A program made the translations under genes and the position numbers. Below are positions 9,705-18,858 of a stretch of DNA of 64,000 nt, piece after piece; position 1 is the first letter of the stretch; each line of letters starts with the position of its first letter. The DNA comes from Dehalococcoidia bacterium (GTDB lineage: Bacteria > Chloroflexota > Dehalococcoidia > Lucifugimonadales > UBA3495). Under the pieces are notes generated by a model. The model was not told the DNA's origin. It searched no databases and worked only from the letters and a program-made list of their open reading frames with translations. The stretch lies in NCBI GenBank assembly GCA_965207585.1, contig CBDBMT010000002.1, positions 244,255 through 308,254 on the forward strand, written 5' to 3'.

Positions 9705-10035
9705 GTTTCAATCCCCACCCGCCCTTCAGGGCGGGTGCTACCGGCGGATTGGAAGCCGTCGCGCTCGCGATTTTGAAGTTTCAATCCTCACCCGCCCGAA
9801 AGGGCGGGTGCTACTGGGTTCCAATCGGCACCGACCCCCTGACCCGCAGGATTGTTTCAATCCTCACCCGCCCGAAAGGGCGGGTGCTACGTCAGGTACC
9901 GGCGGCTTATGGCCGCACTGCAGGCAGTTTCAATCCTCACCCGCCCGAAAGGGCGGGTGCTACACCCGGTGCTGGAGATCGTAACCGTGCCTGTGCCAGT
10001 TTCAATCCTCACCCGCCCGAAAGGGCGGGTGCTAC
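9705..10035 (-). CRISPR. CRISPR array, 5 repeats of 37 nt with 4 spacers (36, 39, 36, 35 nt); type I-C-like repeat
   Basis: Repeats at 9705, 9778, 9854, 9927 and 9999: GTTTCAATCCTCACCCGCCCGAAAGGGCGGGTGCTAC. The minus-strand reading ends in ATTGAAAC. The 9705 repeat is degenerate (trailer end), and the leader is on the cas2 side. Confidence 0.95.
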
Positions 10036-10188
10036 TCCTATTCGGGGTTTTTCTACTTGAACATCGCGAACCTCCTGTTTTCTCGCCGGGCGAGCGTTAA
10101 AATTCACGGTTTTCGTCGCGTCGATTTAGTACGGCGTAAGCACGAACGCGAACCTCCTGCTTGAAAGGGCAATCGCAACGGGTTCGCG
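10036..10188 (-). promoter_or_regulatory. CRISPR leader
   Basis: Lies between the cas2 stop and the first repeat. Carries a direct repeat of CGCGAACCTCCTG at 10064 and 10146 (minus-strand reading CAGGAGGTTCGCG). Confidence 0.6.
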
Positions 10189-10488
10189 TCACACCAGCAG
10201 CGGACCGCTGAAGTCGATCACATTGCTGATTCCGTATTCCTCGACCCGGTGCTTGCGCCCGCCGGGAATCTTGTAGAACCGGATGCTGTCTTCGTTCTCG
10301 TCCATGATGTCGAGCAGATTGGCCTTCATTTCGATGAAAGTCGTGTCGCTGACCGTGCATTCAAAAACTGACTTCTGGACCCGCTGGCCGTAGTCTTCAC
10401 AAGTTTTCGCTACCCGCCGCAGGCGCGCACGGCCCTCGGTAGTTTCGGTACTGACGTCGTATGTAACCAGAACCCACATTGCGTTCAC
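10189..10488 (-). CDS. cas2: CRISPR-associated endoribonuclease Cas2
   Basis: MWVLVTYDVSTETTEGRARLRRVAKTCEDYGQRVQKSVFEC is a typical Cas2 N-terminus. Overlaps the cas1 stop by 4 nt. Confidence 0.9.
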   Translation of the reverse strand: MNAMWVLVTYDVSTETTEGRARLRRVAKTCEDYGQRVQKSVFECTVSDTTFIEMKANLLDIMDENEDSIRFYKIPGGRKHRVEEYGISNVIDFSGPLLV

Positions 10489-11519
10489 CGGGACACGAAG
10501 GCGGGATAATGTTGCAGGTCTCCACGCAGATGACGTGCCAGCAATCGGGCTTGCAGATGCGGCAAAAGCCCAATGGGCGTCTTGCGTTGCGCCACTGGAT
10601 GCGTGATCTCTTCCGCCTTCCGTTTCTGATAATTCGTTAGCAATGTCTTTCGACCTTCCTCGGTGAGAGAGACACCACCGCCCAGGCTGGTTTCGAAGTG
10701 CTCGGAGTTCAGTTGGCGCCGGTTGATCAGCGTCAACGCCAAGCGGTCGGCCAAGAATGACCGAAACTCCTCCATCAGGTCAAGCGCGAGTGATGGGCGA
10801 CCAGGGCGGACCGCATGGAGAAAACCGATTTGGGGGTCCAAGCCGACACCTTCGCAAGCGGCTTGGCATTCCGCCCGGACCAGCGCGTAAAGGAACGACA
10901 GCATGGCGTTGATGGGGTCCCGAGGTGGGCGCCTGTTTCTGCCGTCGAATTTGAAAGCCGGATCCGGCGCGCGTATCAGGTGGTCGAAAGCTGAGAAGTA
11001 CACCGCGCCGGCGCGACCCTCGTTGCCGCGGATCTCGTTCAGGGTGCCTGCCTTCTCCAAGTCACCGATGGTGTCCGCCATGTACTTTGCGGCTTGCCGC
11101 AGCTCGGCCTCTGATTCAGTTTCCCGGGTCTGACGCGCCTCTCTCATCAGGAGTGAGCGGCCGTTCTGCACCTTGGCAGCCACGATGTTTCGGGCGATGG
11201 CGGCGGAGCGTTCGTGGTCCTGATACGCTTCATGCTGCGCCAGCCGGAGCAGTACGTTTCCCGAAGTCGGACCTACTACTTTAGCCCGAAAGCGACCGCT
11301 GCGGCTGAGAAAGACCAGATCGCGCTGGTCTTCGGCGCATTGCGCCATGGCGGCCGGGGACACGCTTACTCTGCCGAAGCAGACCACGGCTCCCAGGTGG
11401 TGCACCGGGACCTGTAGGAGCGTCGCGCCGTCCGCTTCGACTTTGAGAGTGCGGTGGTCGACGTGTACGTAGGCCCCTTGGGTGGAGACGTACAGGGTGT
11501 TGAGTAGTTCGTGGGCCAC
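10485..11519 (-). CDS. cas1: CRISPR-associated endonuclease Cas1 (I-C type)
   Basis: LLNTLYVSTQGAYVHVDHRTLKVE... is Cas1-like. A GTG at 11519 is preceded by GAGGA, while the longer ORF to 11603 adds a non-Cas1-like basic extension. Confidence 0.88.
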   Translation of the reverse strand: MAHELLNTLYVSTQGAYVHVDHRTLKVEADGATLLQVPVHHLGAVVCFGRVSVSPAAMAQCAEDQRDLVFLSRSGRFRAKVVGPTSGNVLLRLAQHEAYQDHERSAAIARNIVAAKVQNGRSLLMREARQTRETESEAELRQAAKYMADTIGDLEKAGTLNEIRGNEGRAGAVYFSAFDHLIRAPDPAFKFDGRNRRPPRDPINAMLSFLYALVRAECQAACEGVGLDPQIGFLHAVRPGRPSLALDLMEEFRSFLADRLALTLINRRQLNSEHFETSLGGGVSLTEEGRKTLLTNYQKRKAEEITHPVAQRKTPIGLLPHLQARLLARHLRGDLQHYPAFVSR

Positions 11520-11571
11520 GGTGTTTTCCTCGGTGGGAGGCGGGCGTCTTTTGGCCCATTGCCGACACGGA

Positions 11572-12219
11572 TTACGAGATGGGCTCTTCCATTGTGATTG
11601 CAAACAACTGAGCTTGGTACCGCCGGTTTCTTTCCTGTTCTGACACCACGAACGGCAAGCAGGATTCTACCAGGGAGCAATTTCGGCACCGAGCATCGGC
11701 TACCGCTGGCGGTAGCGTGGAGGCATTCATCATCTGCCGGATTGCCGACACTGCCTTTTTTACTTGCTCACGCAGCGAGGATGTGAATTCGACCTCGCGT
11801 CGTTGCCGGGAGGAGAAGTGATACACGGCGCCCGTTGGAACCTCGACGGCGAGCATTTCTTCAAGGCAAACGGCTTGGCCGCAGAGCTGGAGGTCGGCGT
11901 GGTTGCCGTGGCGTGCCGGGCCGTGCTTGTATTCCACGGGGTACGGAGTGGTGCCGTGGAACTCCACGACGTCAGCTTTACCCAGCAATCGCAGTGAGTC
12001 GGACCACAGCGGCACGGCGTATTCGGTACGTACGCCGTCGATTGTTGCAACGCCGGATTGATCGACCCTCTCGTGTACTGCGTTGCCGCGGAGTGTGTAC
12101 ACGTTCTCGTCGTAGGTCTGCTCCCGGTGAATCAGTGCGCACTGTCGCGGGCAGTAACTGTAATGCTCCAGCATCGACAGCAGGATGTAGTCGTCAAAGT
12201 CCGACACCGGTGCCTCCAT
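11572..12219 (-). CDS. cas4: CRISPR-associated exonuclease Cas4
   Basis: YSYCPRQCALIH and CRNCSLVESC give the four-Cys cluster, together with a RecB-like core. GGAGGA lies 5 nt before the ATG at 12219. Confidence 0.9.
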   Translation of the reverse strand: MEAPVSDFDDYILLSMLEHYSYCPRQCALIHREQTYDENVYTLRGNAVHERVDQSGVATIDGVRTEYAVPLWSDSLRLLGKADVVEFHGTTPYPVEYKHGPARHGNHADLQLCGQAVCLEEMLAVEVPTGAVYHFSSRQRREVEFTSSLREQVKKAVSAIRQMMNASTLPPAVADARCRNCSLVESCLPFVVSEQERNRRYQAQLFAITMEEPIS

Positions 12220-12324
12220 CGTTGTCCTCCACATTGGCAGTATGTCGACGGGTCAGGCGTCAATCCTGGCGACGCTGACTCCCGTTGGCAGGTCGGTTTC
12301 ATCCAGCGTCACCGAGTAGTCGGC

Positions 12325-12361
12325 GTTTCAATCCTCGCCCGGTCAACGGACCGGGCGCAAG
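12325..12361 (-). repeat. solitary divergent CRISPR repeat in the cas7-cas4 intergenic region
   Basis: GTTTCAATCCTCGCCCGGTCAACGGACCGGGCGCAAG. The first 12 nt are identical to the array repeat. The stem is replaced by a different self-complementary pair, CGCCCGGTC/GACCGGGCG. Confidence 0.75.
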
Positions 12362-12447
12362 TGTTGTGAATCGGCGAGTTGATGGGCAACTCTCTTTTCG
12401 CTTCGCGGTTGCGTGTCTCCCTGTCTGTTTCAGGGAAATTGGGATGT

Positions 12448-13344
12448 TTAGCATTCCAGTTGGGTGAGTTTGACGCCGTTTGGCAGATCATCAGCGTCAA
12501 TGGAAATCGTGTAGTCAGTGAATCGGCGCGGCGCGGTCGTTTCATCTTTCCGTTGCACGGCCAGCCGCTCAAAAAGTCGGTGGACCGGGGCGTTGCCCAG
12601 CGGGCTCTCATGGGAAAAGATGTACAGCCCTCGACAGGCCATCAGGCCCCGGGACGAGGATCGGTCAATGTCCCACATATTGGTCAACGCGGTCCAGAGC
12701 AAGGCAAGGTCGTCGGAGTCCACACCCGTTTGTTTGGCGAAGTGTGGGTTGAAAAATCCGTAGCCTTGGTAAAGGCCATAGGGCACGGTGGACTTGCGGC
12801 CCAGTGTGCCGTGGGTGGGCGCTTCTTGGTCGTTTTCCTCATTTGCGGCCCCGCGCTCTCCGCGGTTTTCCAAAGCGACCCTGGCGATGGTCGAATCCAT
12901 GGCGAGAATGGGGTCTATCGAGCGGGAGAACGTTAGCTGCACTGGGCCGCGCACCTGACCGGCGTTGCGCTCGCGCATACTCATCACAGCGCCGAACATC
13001 CGAATGTCGTAGAATTGTTCGCACAACCACGGTTGGGCCTGCCGCGGCGTGGGGGCGTCGTTGTCGCCGCGCTTTTCATCGAAGACACGGCCCCGGGTCT
13101 CGGTGAGGTAGGTTTCCCGTTGGACGTAAATCTTGTACCGGGATTCATCCCCGCGGGCGACGTGCACGTAGTCCCTGACCTTGCGTTTGAGGGACACGTC
13201 CGTGACGATGCCCTGCATGGTTTCGGGATCCATCCGGGGTTGGTTGCCGGCGTCCGGGTCACCGTTGGGGTTGCCGTCCTGCACGTCGAACAGGATGATG
13301 AAATCGTGGCGTCGGCTGACGTCACAGTGGGGTTGTGTGCTCAT
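12448..13344 (-). CDS. cas7: type I-C Cascade subunit Cas7 (Csd2)
   Basis: FDVQDGNPNGDPDAGNQPRMDPETMQGIVTDVSLKRKVRDY is the Csd2 hallmark block. Confidence 0.9.
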   Translation of the reverse strand: MSTQPHCDVSRRHDFIILFDVQDGNPNGDPDAGNQPRMDPETMQGIVTDVSLKRKVRDYVHVARGDESRYKIYVQRETYLTETRGRVFDEKRGDNDAPTPRQAQPWLCEQFYDIRMFGAVMSMRERNAGQVRGPVQLTFSRSIDPILAMDSTIARVALENRGERGAANEENDQEAPTHGTLGRKSTVPYGLYQGYGFFNPHFAKQTGVDSDDLALLWTALTNMWDIDRSSSRGLMACRGLYIFSHESPLGNAPVHRLFERLAVQRKDETTAPRRFTDYTISIDADDLPNGVKLTQLEC

Positions 13345-13365: not shown

Positions 13366-15069
13366 TTATTCCGCGTCGGGTTCGTTGCCATTATCATCCC
13401 GCTGCGCGTTCCGCCGCGCGGTGGCTTCTTGGGCCTGCCGGCTGTTATCGGCACGTTGGTGGTAGTAGCCGAGGGCGAAGAGTCCCTGCTGTTCCAGGTT
13501 CAGCGTCCTTGGGAACCCGTCCAGGCTGGACATGATTTCTTCCATGTCGGCCTCAATGGCTACGCGTGCGCTCCGCCGGTCCCGGTTCAGCGTGTGCAGA
13601 TGTGCCCGCACTCCTTTGAGCAGAAGTGGGAACACTGCTCCGGGCGCGGTGGACGCCGTACCGTAGTACCGGTCGGCAATGGTTGCGTTGACGTTGCGTA
13701 TCGCCGTGGTTTGGGCGCGCTCGAGCACGTTGAAGAGCCGCCCGCAGAGGTAGCCTGGATCCGAGTTCTCTCTGTCGACTTCCACCATGTGGTCCTCCCG
13801 ATGGTCGTATTGCTGCCTCTGGCTGAGCAGCGCCAGCTTGATCAGAGCGGCGCGTGGTCTGGTTACTCTGCGTTCCGCTTGGCAGCGGCGGATCGCCTGC
13901 TGGAGTATTTGGCTTGGCACGGGCTCTCCGCCGAACGCCGTTTTGATGAGGGCACGGGGCGTCGTAACCGGGAGGTCTTTGCGATCCCTGACAGTAGCGT
14001 TGGCCAGCGACGTGACCCCGTAGTATCGGTTCTCGTTGTCATAGCCGGGTGCGACCTGCTGGCGTTGGAACCACAGCGCTAGGTTTTCTTTGACATTCCT
14101 CACGGTGGTGTTGAGCCAGTCGCGGACCACCGCTCGTCCGCCGGCCGCGGACAGCGACAGCGCGTAGAAGTCGGCTTCGTCAAGGTCGGCCCAGCGTCCG
14201 CGCCGCGCTGATTCGAGCAAGGCTTGGACGTGCTGCGGGTCCGGTGTGGACATCATCGTGAGGAAGTCGAAGTCGTGAGTTTCTCGGGTCCAGAAGACGA
14301 AGGCGCCGTTGCCGGTTCTGAACCGGGTGGAGTCGCCGGACAGCAGGTCGTTGAGCCCCCGGGTGAAGCCTTCCGCACATTCCTGGCAGATCGGAGCTAC
14401 TTGCGAAGCTTGAAGGCCATAGGACTCGAAGGCGTCGCTGTTCGCCGAGATGATGCTGGTGCCGGAGGTTTGCCCGCCCGGGATGCCCTTGACCTTGGAT
14501 TGCAGACGCTCCAGTACAGGGCGATTTTCGCCGCAGACCAGGCATTGCATCGTCGCGCCGTCCGGTTCGTTGATGGCGGCCCAGAACCGTTGCACCGCCG
14601 GGTTGTCGATCACGTACCGGCCTTCAACCTGGAACGTGATGATACCGCCGTTGTCAAAATCGTCTTCGAGTTCGAGATTTTGCAAGGGCTCGTTCTTGAG
14701 GAAGTGCAGAACCGCCAAGACGTCCGGTTCTTCGGTTTCGGTGCCGCAGCGCTCCACCAAATCGACGTAGGCGGCGTGTGCTTTCTGGGCTCGGTCAAGC
14801 TGTTTTGCGCTCTTGGGAAGCCCCAGCGTGTAGTCGGACGGGCTGGCCAACAGCAATGGCCGGATGCCCGACGTGCGCTGCACCTGTGGCAGTAGCCTCC
14901 GCCTTCCTCGCCGGTTGCGGGGTGTCGAAGGGTCGCTCACAATCAGCCGCCGGCTGCGGCACTCGCCGTTGGGATCCAGCGGAATAACGTAGCGCAGAGC
15001 GCCCTCGGCGTAGAGTTTGGGCGCTGCCGTTTCGTTCCTTTGGGCGTATTCGACCAGTTTGTCCAGCAT
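13366..15069 (-). CDS. cas8c: type I-C large subunit Cas8c (Csd1)
   Basis: Position between cas5 and cas7, size of 567 aa, and Csd1-like N-terminus MLDKLVEYAQR. An internal GGAGG-ATG at 13788 could give a Cas11c-like product. Confidence 0.85.
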   Translation of the reverse strand: MLDKLVEYAQRNETAAPKLYAEGALRYVIPLDPNGECRSRRLIVSDPSTPRNRRGRRRLLPQVQRTSGIRPLLLASPSDYTLGLPKSAKQLDRAQKAHAAYVDLVERCGTETEEPDVLAVLHFLKNEPLQNLELEDDFDNGGIITFQVEGRYVIDNPAVQRFWAAINEPDGATMQCLVCGENRPVLERLQSKVKGIPGGQTSGTSIISANSDAFESYGLQASQVAPICQECAEGFTRGLNDLLSGDSTRFRTGNGAFVFWTRETHDFDFLTMMSTPDPQHVQALLESARRGRWADLDEADFYALSLSAAGGRAVVRDWLNTTVRNVKENLALWFQRQQVAPGYDNENRYYGVTSLANATVRDRKDLPVTTPRALIKTAFGGEPVPSQILQQAIRRCQAERRVTRPRAALIKLALLSQRQQYDHREDHMVEVDRENSDPGYLCGRLFNVLERAQTTAIRNVNATIADRYYGTASTAPGAVFPLLLKGVRAHLHTLNRDRRSARVAIEADMEEIMSSLDGFPRTLNLEQQGLFALGYYHQRADNSRQAQEATARRNAQRDDNGNEPDAE

Positions 15070-15070
15070 T

Positions 15071-15727
15071 TCACCCCTCCTGCTCCGACGAGTGGGGTAT
15101 ACGCAATACGCCCTGCTCCAGCCGCGCGTTGAAGAATCTCGGCGTGGCGGCGCCGTTGCTCTGGGGATCGTAGGTCAAGTCCAGCAGCATGCTGCCCAAT
15201 TCTTCGGTAACGTCGATGGGGGTTTCCGTTCCGTCCGGTACGGAAAACCTGGCCCAGAACTCGCGGCAGCCCAGGTAGGGAATGGCGAAGCATCGCCCGG
15301 AGTTCACCCTGCGCCGGAATTGGTCACGGTACTTGGCAGGGTCTTCGGATCCGTTCTTAACCACGATTTGCGCCTTGATGATGTAAGCGACGTCGCGGAG
15401 GGCAAGGGTGTGCCTTTGAGCTCGGTTCCTGCTGTCGGCAGCGTCAAAACCGCCGCCTTCTCGTTGCCACCGCCGCGCGGTTTGAACGGTCTGGCGCGAG
15501 CGGATTTCGTTGCGGACGACGGACGCGTACCGGATGGGCTCCAGCACTTGGATTTCCTCAATCTGCCAGGTGAACTCCGGCTTCCAGCAAATCGCTTCCA
15601 GCACTCCTTTTGCCGCCGTTGGCGTCATCATCGGGTACGAGACGCGCTCCACTTTCATCTCCGGTCTGGTGAAGCAGGCGAATTCGCCCTCAACTTTGAC
15701 CGTCAGCGGTGGGTAATCTGGTTTCAT
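15071..15727 (-). CDS. cas5: type I-C Cas5 (Cas5d, pre-crRNA processing subunit)
   Basis: KVEGEFACFTRPEMKVERVSYPMMTPTAAKGVLEAICWKPEFTWQIEEIQVL is a canonical Cas5d N-terminus. Confidence 0.9.
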   Translation of the reverse strand: MKPDYPPLTVKVEGEFACFTRPEMKVERVSYPMMTPTAAKGVLEAICWKPEFTWQIEEIQVLEPIRYASVVRNEIRSRQTVQTARRWQREGGGFDAADSRNRAQRHTLALRDVAYIIKAQIVVKNGSEDPAKYRDQFRRRVNSGRCFAIPYLGCREFWARFSVPDGTETPIDVTEELGSMLLDLTYDPQSNGAATPRFFNARLEQGVLRIPHSSEQEG

Positions 15728-16257
15728 GCTTGCTGGTTCCCTCGTGCCTTATCTGCCACGTAGTTGACGGCTCTCGTCCCGGCGAAATAGGCGAAGTAAG
15801 CGCTTTCGAGCCTTTTGCCTTGGAGGTATCGCCAATCCTCGAAGTCTCGATTGTGGTCCAGTACGAACTCCTTGAAGGTCATCATCGCTGTCTCCGGTGC
15901 TATGGTCCACTTTTTCCATGACTCTTCAATCTCTTGCTTGGTGTCGCGTGGTAGGTCTTCATATAGTCTTTCCAGGTCGTGGATATGGCGAAACTTTCTT
16001 CCAAGCGCTTGGTAGATCCCCTTGAGTGCGCATTCAAGCGCAAAAGCCTGCATGGTGCAGTTGATGATCCCTTTCCCGACTGTGACTTCGTCCTCTGTCG
16101 TGGCGGCGTTTCCTACTGTGCCGATCTCCGTGGTGCAGACTCGGTAGTACTCAAGCGTACCCGCTATCGACTTGGAGATGAAAGTCATGTCCGCCTCTCC
16201 GTCCGGCATGATGTCGAACCTGATTGTGGTCTCTCCTGCGGGTTGTTGGGTAGCCAT
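15724..16257 (-). CDS. HEPN-domain-like protein embedded in the cas operon (177 aa)
   Basis: The ATG at 16257 lies 23 nt after the cas3 stop, and its TGA overlaps the cas5 ATG (ATGA). ALECALKGIYQALGRKFRHIHDLERLYEDL fits the Rx4-6H spacing, and a distal DWRY is present. The block is shared with the HEPN part of 51863..52741. Confidence 0.6.
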   Translation of the reverse strand: MATQQPAGETTIRFDIMPDGEADMTFISKSIAGTLEYYRVCTTEIGTVGNAATTEDEVTVGKGIINCTMQAFALECALKGIYQALGRKFRHIHDLERLYEDLPRDTKQEIEESWKKWTIAPETAMMTFKEFVLDHNRDFEDWRYLQGKRLESAYFAYFAGTRAVNYVADKARGNQQA

Positions 16258-16280
16258 GTTTACCTCTCTGTTCTGGCCGC

Positions 16281-18449
16281 TCATACGATCAACTGGTCGG
16301 GGTCTATCGTTTTGACGCCTCCGATGCCGGTGACCGCGTTGTAGGTGCCTCTCCATTCGTAGAGTCCCGGCATGATTTCATCGAGCAAACCAGTTCGCTC
16401 CTTTTCGAGTGCTTCCCCTCTGTAAAGTGACACTGACCACGGTTGTACCTGCCGGAGCAGTTGACGGGCGTTTTTGTTGCCTTCGCGCAATACGGCTACG
16501 GCCTTGAGAACTTTCGGCCATTCTTCGGGTTTGTTGGCGGCCTTGAATGCCTCTTCTCTGGTGACGACCGCGGAGACGGTATCGTCGTCAATCATCTTGA
16601 ACCGCTTGGCAACTTCGGGGTAGTCGAATGCTTTGCGCCCTTCCTGCACCTGCTGGGCGTCCGTGTCGACGTCTTGGTAAAGTCGGCGGAAATACTCCGC
16701 TACCAAGTCGGGATCATCCAGGTCGCTGTGACCGTCGCTGCGCATCTCGACGGTTCTACCCGTGGCCGTCCGGTAGGTGCCGCGTGGCAAGGTTGCCTTC
16801 TCTGCTTGGAATACTATCACCTGTCCTTCGTCCAGCCTTCCGTTGCGGTTGCAGCGACCCGCGGCTTGGATGATGCTGTCCATCGGACCGACAGCGCGCA
16901 GTACCATGGGGAAGTCGATGTCGACGCCGGCTTCCACCACCTGCGTCGAAACTACGCGACAACTCTCCCCGTTGTCCAGACGCTGGCGTATCTCTGCGAT
17001 GACCGCCTCGCGGTGCCTTCCGCACAACAGCGTTGAGAGGTGCAGAGCGTTTTGTTCGTTCAACGCTTCCAGCAGCGCCAAGGCGTCCTTTTTCGTGTTC
17101 ACTACCGCCAATGCTTGCGGCGTTTCGCGCATGATGTCGGCAACTTGGTTCCACGCCAGTGTCGGGTCGGTTCGCCACTCGTAGTGGACTCTTTTCAAAC
17201 TCTGAAAGTGCCTTTCCGGCGACGGCACAATGTCATGGGCGTCCACGTCGGCAAAGGGCTTTATCGCCTGGAATGCCGGCTGGGTGGCGGTGGACAGCAC
17301 CACCGTGGTGCCGTAGTTTTCCGAAAGGTCGCGTAGCCCGTCCAAGATGGGCCCCAGCAACGTAGGCGGCAGCGCCTGGGCTTCGTCCAGGATGATGACG
17401 CTTCTGGCCAGGTTATGCAGCTTGCGGGTGGAACTGGTGCGGTTTGAGAACAGGCTGTTGAAAAGCTGGACGGTGGTGGTGACCACAACGGGCGCGTCCC
17501 AGTTTTCACTGGCCAGCCTGGCCCAGATCGCTTTCGTGTCGTACTCGTCGGACTCGTCGCCCTCCGCTGACGAGTGATGTTCCAGCACGGCCTCGTCCCC
17601 GAGGAATTCTCGGTACACGCTGGCCGTCTGCTGGGTGATTGAAATGAACGGGACCGCGACGATCACCCGGTCCAGGCCGTGGCTTACGGCGTGGCGTAGG
17701 GCGAAGCCCATCCCTGACAGGGTCTTGCCGCCGCCGGTAGGGACAGCCAGGCGAAAAATGCCGGGAGGATTTTGGGCGGCGGCCAAGCAGGCTTCGTACA
17801 CTTCAGAGCGTACCTCGTTGACCTTGCCTGCCGGCGCCCCGGTTTGGACGTTCTGGTGTCGCCTGCTGAATCTCTGCCACAGGTCCGCCAAACCGACGCT
17901 TGGCCCGCGTTGTGCCGCTTGCTGCGGGTTGAAGTGCGTCTCGGTGTCCAAGTAGTCGGCGTCCACCAGTGCCGAAAACACCATCCTCAGCCACAGCTCG
18001 GCACGGTGCTGGTTGTTGACCCACGGTGGTGGCTTTATTGGAGTCTGCGGTTCCAGTTGGGGCATGGTCTTGCGTGCGTAGTCGATGGCTTGTCCCGTCG
18101 CGGGGTTGCTGTCTTTCTCGTTGATCCACTCTCTGCAATGCCTCATTGCTTGCAGGCCGCCGTGATGTCCTTGGACCAGCAGTGCCAATGGTTCCAGATG
18201 ACGCTGAATCGCCAGTTTGGCGCCTGCGCCTTTGTGGTCCGGTCCGCGTCGGCGCTCTCCGGCAAGGTACCGTTGGAACTCGGGGTTGAACTTGCCCACG
18301 TCGTGCCACAGGCCGGCGTAGTATCCGGCGTCGTGGCTGTCGAAGGGTTCGCAGAACTCTCCGGCGATTTTCGCCACCGCAGTCAGGTGGTCGACCAATC
18401 CATGGCAGATGCCGTCCTCGTTGGCGGAGTGGGCGTGAAATTCAATCAT
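16281..18449 (-). CDS. cas3: CRISPR-associated helicase/nuclease Cas3 (HD + SF2 helicase)
   Basis: HD motifs HAHS...GLWHDVGKFNPEFQ. Walker A PTGGGKT and DEAQ box IILDEAQAL. Confidence 0.93.
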   Translation of the reverse strand: MIEFHAHSANEDGICHGLVDHLTAVAKIAGEFCEPFDSHDAGYYAGLWHDVGKFNPEFQRYLAGERRRGPDHKGAGAKLAIQRHLEPLALLVQGHHGGLQAMRHCREWINEKDSNPATGQAIDYARKTMPQLEPQTPIKPPPWVNNQHRAELWLRMVFSALVDADYLDTETHFNPQQAAQRGPSVGLADLWQRFSRRHQNVQTGAPAGKVNEVRSEVYEACLAAAQNPPGIFRLAVPTGGGKTLSGMGFALRHAVSHGLDRVIVAVPFISITQQTASVYREFLGDEAVLEHHSSAEGDESDEYDTKAIWARLASENWDAPVVVTTTVQLFNSLFSNRTSSTRKLHNLARSVIILDEAQALPPTLLGPILDGLRDLSENYGTTVVLSTATQPAFQAIKPFADVDAHDIVPSPERHFQSLKRVHYEWRTDPTLAWNQVADIMRETPQALAVVNTKKDALALLEALNEQNALHLSTLLCGRHREAVIAEIRQRLDNGESCRVVSTQVVEAGVDIDFPMVLRAVGPMDSIIQAAGRCNRNGRLDEGQVIVFQAEKATLPRGTYRTATGRTVEMRSDGHSDLDDPDLVAEYFRRLYQDVDTDAQQVQEGRKAFDYPEVAKRFKMIDDDTVSAVVTREEAFKAANKPEEWPKVLKAVAVLREGNKNARQLLRQVQPWSVSLYRGEALEKERTGLLDEIMPGLYEWRGTYNAVTGIGGVKTIDPDQLIV

Positions 18450-18858
18450 CGTTTCGCTCTGTCCGGGATAGGCTCGCAGCTGTGTCCGACGTTGCGGCGG
18501 CCGAGTTCCCCGCCGCTGGGCCCGTTGTTGAGGATCTGATTCTGCCTGCGAGGGTTCCTACCGTCGTGCCGACCATGGTTTCTGTCGCTGATACGCCCGT
18601 GATGACTTCCTGGAGCAGGTCGTCGGTGAGAACCGAGGCGGTCAGGTGGTCGACCACCAGTTCGTCCAGTCGCCCAGTTTCGATTTCCGGCAAGTCGCAG
18701 CGGTTGCCGTCCCTTTCCTCGGAATTGGGGCAAACGTAGTGTGGAGCGTGGTCAACGCCGCCGCCCAAGATTGTCATGGGAGAGCGGCGACTCTGGCATT
18801 TGGCCAGGCCGCCCAGTACGGGTTGGGCGTCTCGCGCAGTCACGGTGTCGGTGTTCAC
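18442..18858 (-). pseudogene. fragment resembling the zinc-ribbon/coiled-coil region of a large serine recombinase
   Basis: LGGLAKCQSRR...HYVCPNSEERDGNRCDLPEIETGRLDELVVDHL follows the GLLxC...YYxC...C...LE pattern with Cys losses. No resolvase domain is present. Confidence 0.45.

Follow-up and report, generated by a model that had tools for sequence, protein, structure and literature searches.

A solitary CRISPR repeat followed by a cas7 relic as the probable scar of a recent exchange in a mosaic type I-C operon

[quoted passage not shown] 2023, PMC10120712); the survey stressed the regions by cas3, cas8 and cas6, not the cas7-cas4 gap. Further described systems are the CreR and CreA RNAs (Liu et al., bioRxiv 10.1101/2023.03.10.532045; bioRxiv 10.1101/2024.10.29.618823), phage crRNA-like arrays aimed at I-C loci (bioRxiv 10.1101/2024.10.29.618823) and the RNA anti-CRISPRs (Racrs), among which RacrIC1 is a solitary I-C repeat (Camara-Wilpert et al. 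2023, PMC10651486). We analysed a 64,000-nucleotide (64-kb) stretch of a Dehalococcoidia bacterium genome, hereafter the window, in which a single repeat, termed psiR1, lies between cas7 and cas4 of a type I-C operon. Like the standalone repeats of the survey, psiR1 is single and intergenic, lies in a type I cas locus and has no recognisable partner repeat, but it belongs to a sister repeat family rather than to that of its own array, and the gene relic fused to it both dates its arrival and accounts for it. With CreR and CreA it shares a repeat-derived handle and hairpin within a cas operon, which could load Cascade with a non-array guide, yet it has no partial PAM-flanked promoter match in the 64 kb, no second repeat, terminator or toxin, and its occurrence at this position among close relatives is patchy. 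As in RacrIC1, a solitary I-C repeat with an intact hairpin is present, and one viral contig (L106) shares the psiR1 stem; Racrs, however, are encoded by phages or plasmids, usually from their own promoter and near acr genes, whereas psiR1 is located inside a host cas operon that looks chromosomal, with no promoter-like site and no phage or plasmid match, and was not assigned to the Racrs on these grounds. Given the defining features of CreR/CreA and of mini-arrays that it lacks, psiR1 is best classed among the solitary repeat units of cas loci.

Effector and adaptation modules of CRISPR-Cas systems are known to shuffle modularly, and the present locus resembles such shuffling in that its breakpoint coincides with the cas7/cas4 border between the modules and the flanks have different histories. 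It differs in that the exchanged tract is tiny (~210 bp) and has left behind a duplicated gene tail and a repeat with a PAM-adjacent junction.

The type I-C system is encoded on the minus strand of the window. NCBIfam matches back cas3 (16281-18449), cas5c (15071-15727), cas8c (13366-15069), the working copy of cas7 (csd2, 12448-13344; TIGR02589, E 1e-88), cas4 (11572-12219; TIGR00372, E 3.5e-38) and cas1 (10485-11603), and a short open reading frame at ~10097-10360, also on the minus strand and with no NCBIfam match, was assigned as cas2 on the basis of position and of homology to Cas2 genes in relatives. The CRISPR array (9705-10035, minus strand) consists of five 37-nt repeats of the family that we call type A, GTAGCACCCGCCCTTTCGGGCGGGTGAGGATTGAAAC, which match Rfam CRISPR-DR9; at gathering thresholds, Rfam returned these five repeats only. 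The terminal, leader-distal repeat (9705-9741) is degenerate, with the loop TGAA and the handle GGGGATTGAAAC. Tandem Repeats Finder aligned two neighbouring repeat-spacer units (9891-9926, 9964-9998) at 83%, by which their spacers would be roughly half identical and the protospacers possibly related; direct alignment of the two spacers gave a score of 2, which 93.5% of shuffles reached, under free-end-gap scoring that is poorly suited to this comparison. The first in-frame ATG of cas4 (12234) opens the longest reading frame but is probably not the start, as homology to relatives and the ribosome binding site GGAGGA (12230-12225) favour ATG 12219, located seven nt downstream of that site and matching the start called in locus L082. 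With cas4 starting at 12219, the cas7-cas4 gap spans 12220-12447 and thus probably measures 228 nt, instead of the 213 nt (12235-12447) of the initial annotation.

The solitary repeat is real and non-random. It occupies 12325-12361 on the minus strand, reads CTTGCGCCCGGTCCGTTGACCGGGCGAGGATTGAAAC from 12361 to 12325, and is identical to the array repeat of the window at 26/37 positions. The initial annotation had described a 37-nt element here, outside the array, with the 12-nt handle of the array repeat and a self-complementary hairpin, and both features hold: the handle of 11-12 nt is the same as that of the array, and the hairpin folds with a perfect 9-bp stem at -20.3 kcal/mol, as compared with -20.4 kcal/mol for the array repeat. 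The sequence GTTTCAATCCTC, allowing for at most one mismatch, occurs six times in 64 kb, namely in the five array repeats and at 12325-12336, the number expected by chance being 0.16. Using a covariance model built on 23 diverse I-C repeats, we searched the window with filters off and E<=10. psiR1 scored 40.3 bits (E 6e-10), closely resembling bona fide CRISPR repeats, and was the sole match outside the array; scores above 10 bits were confined to the array, psiR1 and the reverse strands of these hairpins, and the model found no second solitary repeat in the window. The gap consequently holds one model match only and no mini-array, i.e. no set of two or more repeat-like units at spacer-length distance.

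Directly downstream of psiR1 on the transcribed strand lies the 3' end of a second, older cas7 allele. Positions 12324-12253 (minus strand) comprise the last 24 codons of cas7 including the stop, ADYSVTLDETDLPTGVSVARIDA plus stop codon, and are identical at 71/72 positions to the cas7 3' end of L082; they are followed at 12252-12220 by the native cas7-cas4 leader with the cas4 ribosome binding site, identical at 32/33 positions to the L082 gap ccggtcgacatactgccaatgtggaggacaacg. Altogether, window positions 12324-12220 match positions 6514-6618 of L082, where the sequence is the working cas7 tail plus the leader up to the cas4 ATG, at 103/105 positions. L082 (with L083) is a Tara metagenome contig, the Cas7 of which is 88% identical overall to that of the window. 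The translation of the relic fits the C-terminal family consensus of Cas7, ...FxDYxVxLDxxxLPxGVxLTRLxx, and in a protein scan for a second Cas7 tail downstream of cas7 in ~90 I-C loci, the window alone scored, at 113 against a background of at most 38. The relic is untranslated and lies outside any larger open reading frame owing to an in-frame TGA in the repeat handle (GAT TGA AAC) just upstream.

The relic accounts for what had been taken as further repeat-like units. Two handle-like motifs, GGATGAAAC at 12304-12296 and AGGATTGAC at 12267-12259, are present as written, but since the relic is a cas7 3' end, they are not CRISPR handles but codons of the remnant, CTG-GAT-GAA-ACC (L-D-E-T) and AGG-ATT-GAC (R-I-D), respectively. 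The proposed 31-nt pseudo-spacer and second repeat together proved to be cas7 relic plus native cas4 leader. The degenerate repeat placed at about 12257-12293 found no match in the model search (filters off, E<=10), and apart from psiR1 no 37-mer of the gap rose above 17/37 identity to the repeat.

The relic-plus-leader patch differs from L082 at 2 positions in 105 nt, whereas identity in the flanking genes is 87-91%, with differences at 23-31% of four-fold sites; we estimate the Poisson probability of such low divergence at ~0.002. The patch is therefore young or recently exchanged, and for an element of that age the intact hairpin is weak evidence of selection. Purifying selection rather than youth could also explain the very low divergence of the relic.

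The working cas7 in turn ends in a foreign tail. Over residues 1-274, Cas7 shares 92.7% identity with P0001/P0002 (L081/L082), but in the final 24 residues agreement drops to 9/24, while the tails of other clade members are 70-88% identical at comparable divergence of the body. The same break is seen in the DNA: positions 12600-12544 are 86% identical to L082 and 67% to L092, whereas the 72-nt tail at 12519-12448 is 54% identical to L082 and 68% to L092, which places the left breakpoint at about 12520-12544. The foreign 3' end of cas7 (12448-12535, minus strand; tail FTDYTISIDADDLPNGVKLTQLEC plus stop codon) forms the left part of the imported block. Thus the gene is a mosaic, into which a block at ~12535-12325, composed of a cas7 3' end, 86 nt and psiR1, was patched. 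The 86-nt segment between the cas7 stop and psiR1 (12362-12447, minus strand) forms two small hairpins and contains no start codon and no mini-ORF led by a Shine-Dalgarno sequence on that strand. As a candidate CRISPR leader it was rejected, its alignment to nine leaders of related loci being no better than that of shuffles. Neither the imported block nor the 86-nt segment was matched in plasmid or phage collections, and Cas7 relatives were not found in IMG/VR.

The stem of psiR1 is explained by its origin. The clade of close relatives (Cas7 81-88% identical) possesses two repeat families. Type A, GTAGCACCCGCCC....GGGCGGGTGAGGATTGAAAC, is found in the window and in L081, L082, L084, L088, L092 and L093; type B, [GA]TTGCGCCCGG[CT]CTAACCGCCGGGCGAGGATTGAAAC, forms full arrays in L086, L087 and L094. 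psiR1 is identical to the type B array repeat of L087, GTTGCGCCCGGTCTAACCGCCGGGCGAGGATTGAAAC, at 31/37 positions, with differences that fall essentially within the loop. A solitary repeat with exactly the psiR1 stem is present in the IMG/VR contig L106. The three compensated stem pairs between psiR1 and the window's array hence reflect a different origin, in the type B family, and not covariation in place; the initial reading of a stem that had fully co-varied gives way to that of a repeat from a second family, present as full arrays in sister loci.

In our view, the sequence between cas7 and cas4 is probably the young scar of a recombination in a mosaic type I-C operon, a by-product that would be neutral or nearly so. 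A fossil of recombination between two I-C loci had been offered as the alternative in the initial annotation, and the relic, the foreign tail and the sister-family repeat speak for it. A block of ~210 bp from a more divergent I-C locus would have been patched into an L082-like operon, bringing in the last ~88 nt of the donor cas7, an 86-nt non-coding stretch and a single type B repeat. The imported tail would then complete cas7, and the displaced resident tail would persist, without being translated, immediately behind the repeat, with the original 33-nt leader and then cas4 downstream of it. Should the operon transcript cross psiR1, Cas5c would probably cut there; the cut would split the cas3-cas7 mRNA from the cas4-cas1-cas2 mRNA and would free a crRNA-like RNA with the cas7 relic as its guide. 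We infer the recombination mechanism, the transcription, the Cas5c cleavage and the neutrality from sequence comparison.

The point at which repeat and relic meet deserves attention, TTC being the PAM of type I-C systems. In intact cas7 alleles, the first base of the relic comes after AGG TTC, where TTC is the Phe codon of PRRF, and the junction in the window (...ATTGAAAC followed by GCCGACTAC) has the form expected of a repeat plus a cas7-derived spacer. Downstream of TTC, the L082-type allele reads GCCGACTACTCAGTGACGCTGGATGAAACCGACCTG; the relic guide of the window, which follows the repeat, reads GCCGACTACTCGG. This arrangement hints that the right-hand junction was made by a cas7-derived spacer or by the adaptation machinery, and it is compatible with recombination between a donor spacer and a recipient protospacer or with aberrant integration. 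The arrangement was observed only once, the chance of coincidence being ~1-in-64, and none of the 904 spacers in the related arrays that were fetched targets a cas gene. The guide matches L082 cas7 at 35/36 positions next to a TTC PAM, with its only mismatch at position 12, a sixth position of the kind that reportedly plays no part in the pairing of type I effectors. Against its own cas7 tail, the guide matches at 20/36 positions, with mismatches at seed positions 1 and 3. Both patterns follow automatically from the recombination history and are thus not evidence of selection.

Close relatives were collected by exact-protein look-ups; among the genome-scan matches listed, the best named relatives were Chloroflexota MAGs at no more than 64% identity, and a metagenome scan with the Cas7 protein yielded distant loci only. 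A comparison of the cas7-cas4 gap across relatives, which had been proposed as a check, gave a divided picture. A repeat in some form is present in the gaps of L081, L085, L084 and L088-91, differing in exact position and in repeat type and followed by unrelated guides; it is absent from several of the closest relatives, namely L082/L083, L086, L087, L094 and L099 (gaps of 29-34 nt) and L093 (105 nt). In L081 the gap repeat is intact, type-B-like and located 3 nt after the cas7 stop. The stem is kept at 7/9 pairs in L085, and only the handle remains in L084 and L088-91, so that the hairpin is lost in three of these four cases. Despite their decayed stems, L085 and L084 retain the 12-nt handle in full, and L088 retains it at 12/13 positions; since the gap handle of L084 differs from the handle of its own array, GAGGGTTGAAAC, it is not simply a copy from the array. 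Both the window and L081 keep perfect 9-bp stems in spite of seven apical differences, one compensated pair among them, which could mean selection for structure. Among 80 diverse I-C loci, one clear handle-like gap element was detected, in the distant Thermomicrobiales locus L020, ending in GGGGATTGAAAC; L059 showed two weak TTGAAAT matches that are not repeat-like.

L084 was tried as a parallel case, having a foreign-type tail, a gap repeat and a sequence ending in GACGCCTAA 34 nt before cas4. The alignment of its putative relic looked convincing when the native leader was included, but that of the 72-nt tail is not significant (2-30% of shuffles reach it), and the 30 nt after the L084 repeat do not match cas7. 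The shared architecture, with a decayed relic after the gap repeat, is suggestive only.

Several further rearrangements were observed at these loci. The gap of L093 (L093:6898-7002) duplicates the region of the cas4 ribosome binding site and start (..ggtcaggctggaggcaatgATGGAACC.. twice) around an insert of ~45 nt, another sign of a rearrangement-prone cas7-cas4 boundary. In the P0009 group (L088:6898-9800, L091:2312-4055), the I-C locus is full of IS elements with DDE transposases and has lost cas4-cas1-cas2, and a decayed repeat (..GCTGAGGATTGAAAA) remains ~134 nt after cas7. Solitary repeats also occur elsewhere in the operons: L087, with its type B array, has a solitary type-A-like repeat (29 bits) between cas5 and cas8c (L087:4230-4266), and L081 has a type-A-like repeat (35 bits) with no detectable target in its 407-nt cas3-cas5 gap (L081:3078-3114).

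The main rival to the recombination scar is a functional processing site, in which Cas5c cleavage at psiR1 would split the operon transcript and decouple the expression or stability of cas4-cas1-cas2 from that of the effector genes, depending on Cas5c/Cascade levels. What Cas5c is reported to recognise is the cut site together with the handle downstream of it, and neither the loop nor the 5' part of the repeat (PMC8524198). Because psiR1 retains the stem, the stem base and the downstream handle, it should be a competent Cas5c substrate, and its stability equals that of the array repeat. Its location exactly at the boundary of the effector and adaptation modules, in a gap with no promoter-like site and no terminator-like site on the minus strand, would suit such a role, as would the recurrence of repeats or handles in the gaps of L081, L085, L084, L088 and the distant L020, and the stronger conservation of handles than of stems. 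However, many of the closest relatives manage with gaps of 29-34 nt that have no such element, the hairpin needed by Cas5c is degraded in three of the five loci, and the element looks young. We know of no described precedent in type I-C systems, and on balance consider this role unlikely.

Less probable still is a CreR/CreA-like regulator, which is what the initial annotation had proposed in the form of a repeat, a pseudo-spacer and a degenerate repeat: the psiR1 RNA, pairing in part with a cas or toxin promoter, would bring Cascade to that promoter and repress it. creA-like elements have been reported for type I-C (bioRxiv 10.1101/2023.03.10.532045), psiR1 lies inside the cas operon with the correct handle followed by ~70 nt of non-coding RNA, and the window does not contain the CreR-like unit that relatives have between cas3 and cas5, which would leave room for a substitute. 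The sequence after the handle, however, is a cas7 relic, 71/72 identical to a gene that works elsewhere, and was not shaped to a promoter. We searched the entire window on both strands for targets of the guide, ignoring sixth positions, and detected no seed of 8 nt or more flanked by TTC or TTT, at promoters or elsewhere; the best match in the 64 kb, a 10-nt seed within the coding sequence of cas3 where the PAM position reads GAC, was treated as chance. Furthermore, the RNA would not be bounded by a degenerate repeat or terminator downstream, where the cas7 relic lies, and no toxin-like unit, in particular no small toxin as expected for CreA, was found near psiR1. The guides that follow the gap repeats of L081, L085, L084, L088 and L020 likewise have no PAM-flanked target in their own loci, although the same scan recovers the target of the cas3-cas5 unit in L086. 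With no partial PAM-flanked target in the window and with its own cas7 unbindable, psiR1 is most likely a young, near-neutral by-product and not a CreA/CreR regulator.

A guide against sister alleles appears very improbable. Placed after the repeat at a PAM, the resident cas7 tail would become a spacer against unmodified L082-type operons, to which the imported tail would be immune, resulting in exclusion of, or homing into, rival I-C loci. The near-perfect pairing with L082 cas7 at a TTC PAM, its one mismatch at a sixth position, the seed mismatches to the own tail and the exactly PAM-adjacent junction are what such a guide would require, but the same properties result from the recombination history automatically, the instance is single with no second locus bearing the same cassette, none of the 904 spacers from related arrays targets cas genes, and the L084 parallel has no statistical support. 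We give equally little credence to a cassette (cas7 tail, 86 nt and repeat) that acts as a self-propagating or excluding element, a CRISPR-repeat-based allele drive on a cas gene in which unmodified I-C operons on incoming DNA or sister chromosomes would be attacked by Cascade-Cas3, to the advantage of operons that copy or keep the cassette, or, in a milder variant, as a Cas5c-operated switch of adaptation versus effector expression.

The young scar, which we continue to favour, makes this locus a cautionary case: when a cas operon contains a repeat-like element with handle-like neighbours, these can be a gene relic instead of a regulatory mini-array, and the revealing check is translation of the flank together with comparison to close relatives. 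At single-nucleotide resolution, the locus also preserves a small mosaic exchange at the I-C effector/adaptation boundary, and the PAM-adjacent junction raises the idea that recombination within cas operons can be seeded by spacers or by the adaptation machinery. If psiR1 is processed, this would be a natural cas operon whose guide is directed at sister alleles of its own cas7.

The IMG/VR contigs L100 (6184-6220), L104 (5530-5566) and L106 (3136-3172) also contain solitary I-C repeats that are type-B-like and have kept their hairpins intact. These viral repeats are candidate RNA anti-CRISPRs against I-C systems of the repeat family of psiR1.

In addition, the ~180-nt cas3-cas5 gap of seven relatives (L082:3123-3302, L085:3430-3609, L086:3436-3617, L087:3398-3578, L091:1439-1622, L093:3427-3610, L094:3450-3622) contains a degenerate repeat ending in G[AT]GGATTGAAA[AC]. 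The repeat is followed by ~16 nt complementary to an AT-rich, -10-like stretch just past the cas3 stop, with the PAM TTC or TTT, and guide and target co-vary between loci (e.g. 16/17 in L086, TTC PAM). This conserved element is the CreR-like unit of the clade and probably serves Cascade autorepression of the cas5-cas8-cas7 promoter. The unit is missing from the window (15724-16280) and from L084, which have instead homologous open reading frames (15724-16257, minus strand, in the window; 3088-3618 in L084). That of the window encodes 177 aa between cas3 and cas5, its stop overlaps the cas5 start (ATGA), and it weakly resembles HEPN proteins, matching PF05168 below the cut-off (E 7e-4) and PADLOC PDC-M28A at E 6e-4. 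Finally, an open reading frame overlapping the cas3 start (18442-18858, minus strand) weakly matches the recombinase zinc beta-ribbon (PF13408, E 7.5e-5, 23.5 bits against a cut-off of 25.3), which suggests that a large serine recombinase has left a remnant immediately upstream of the cas operon.
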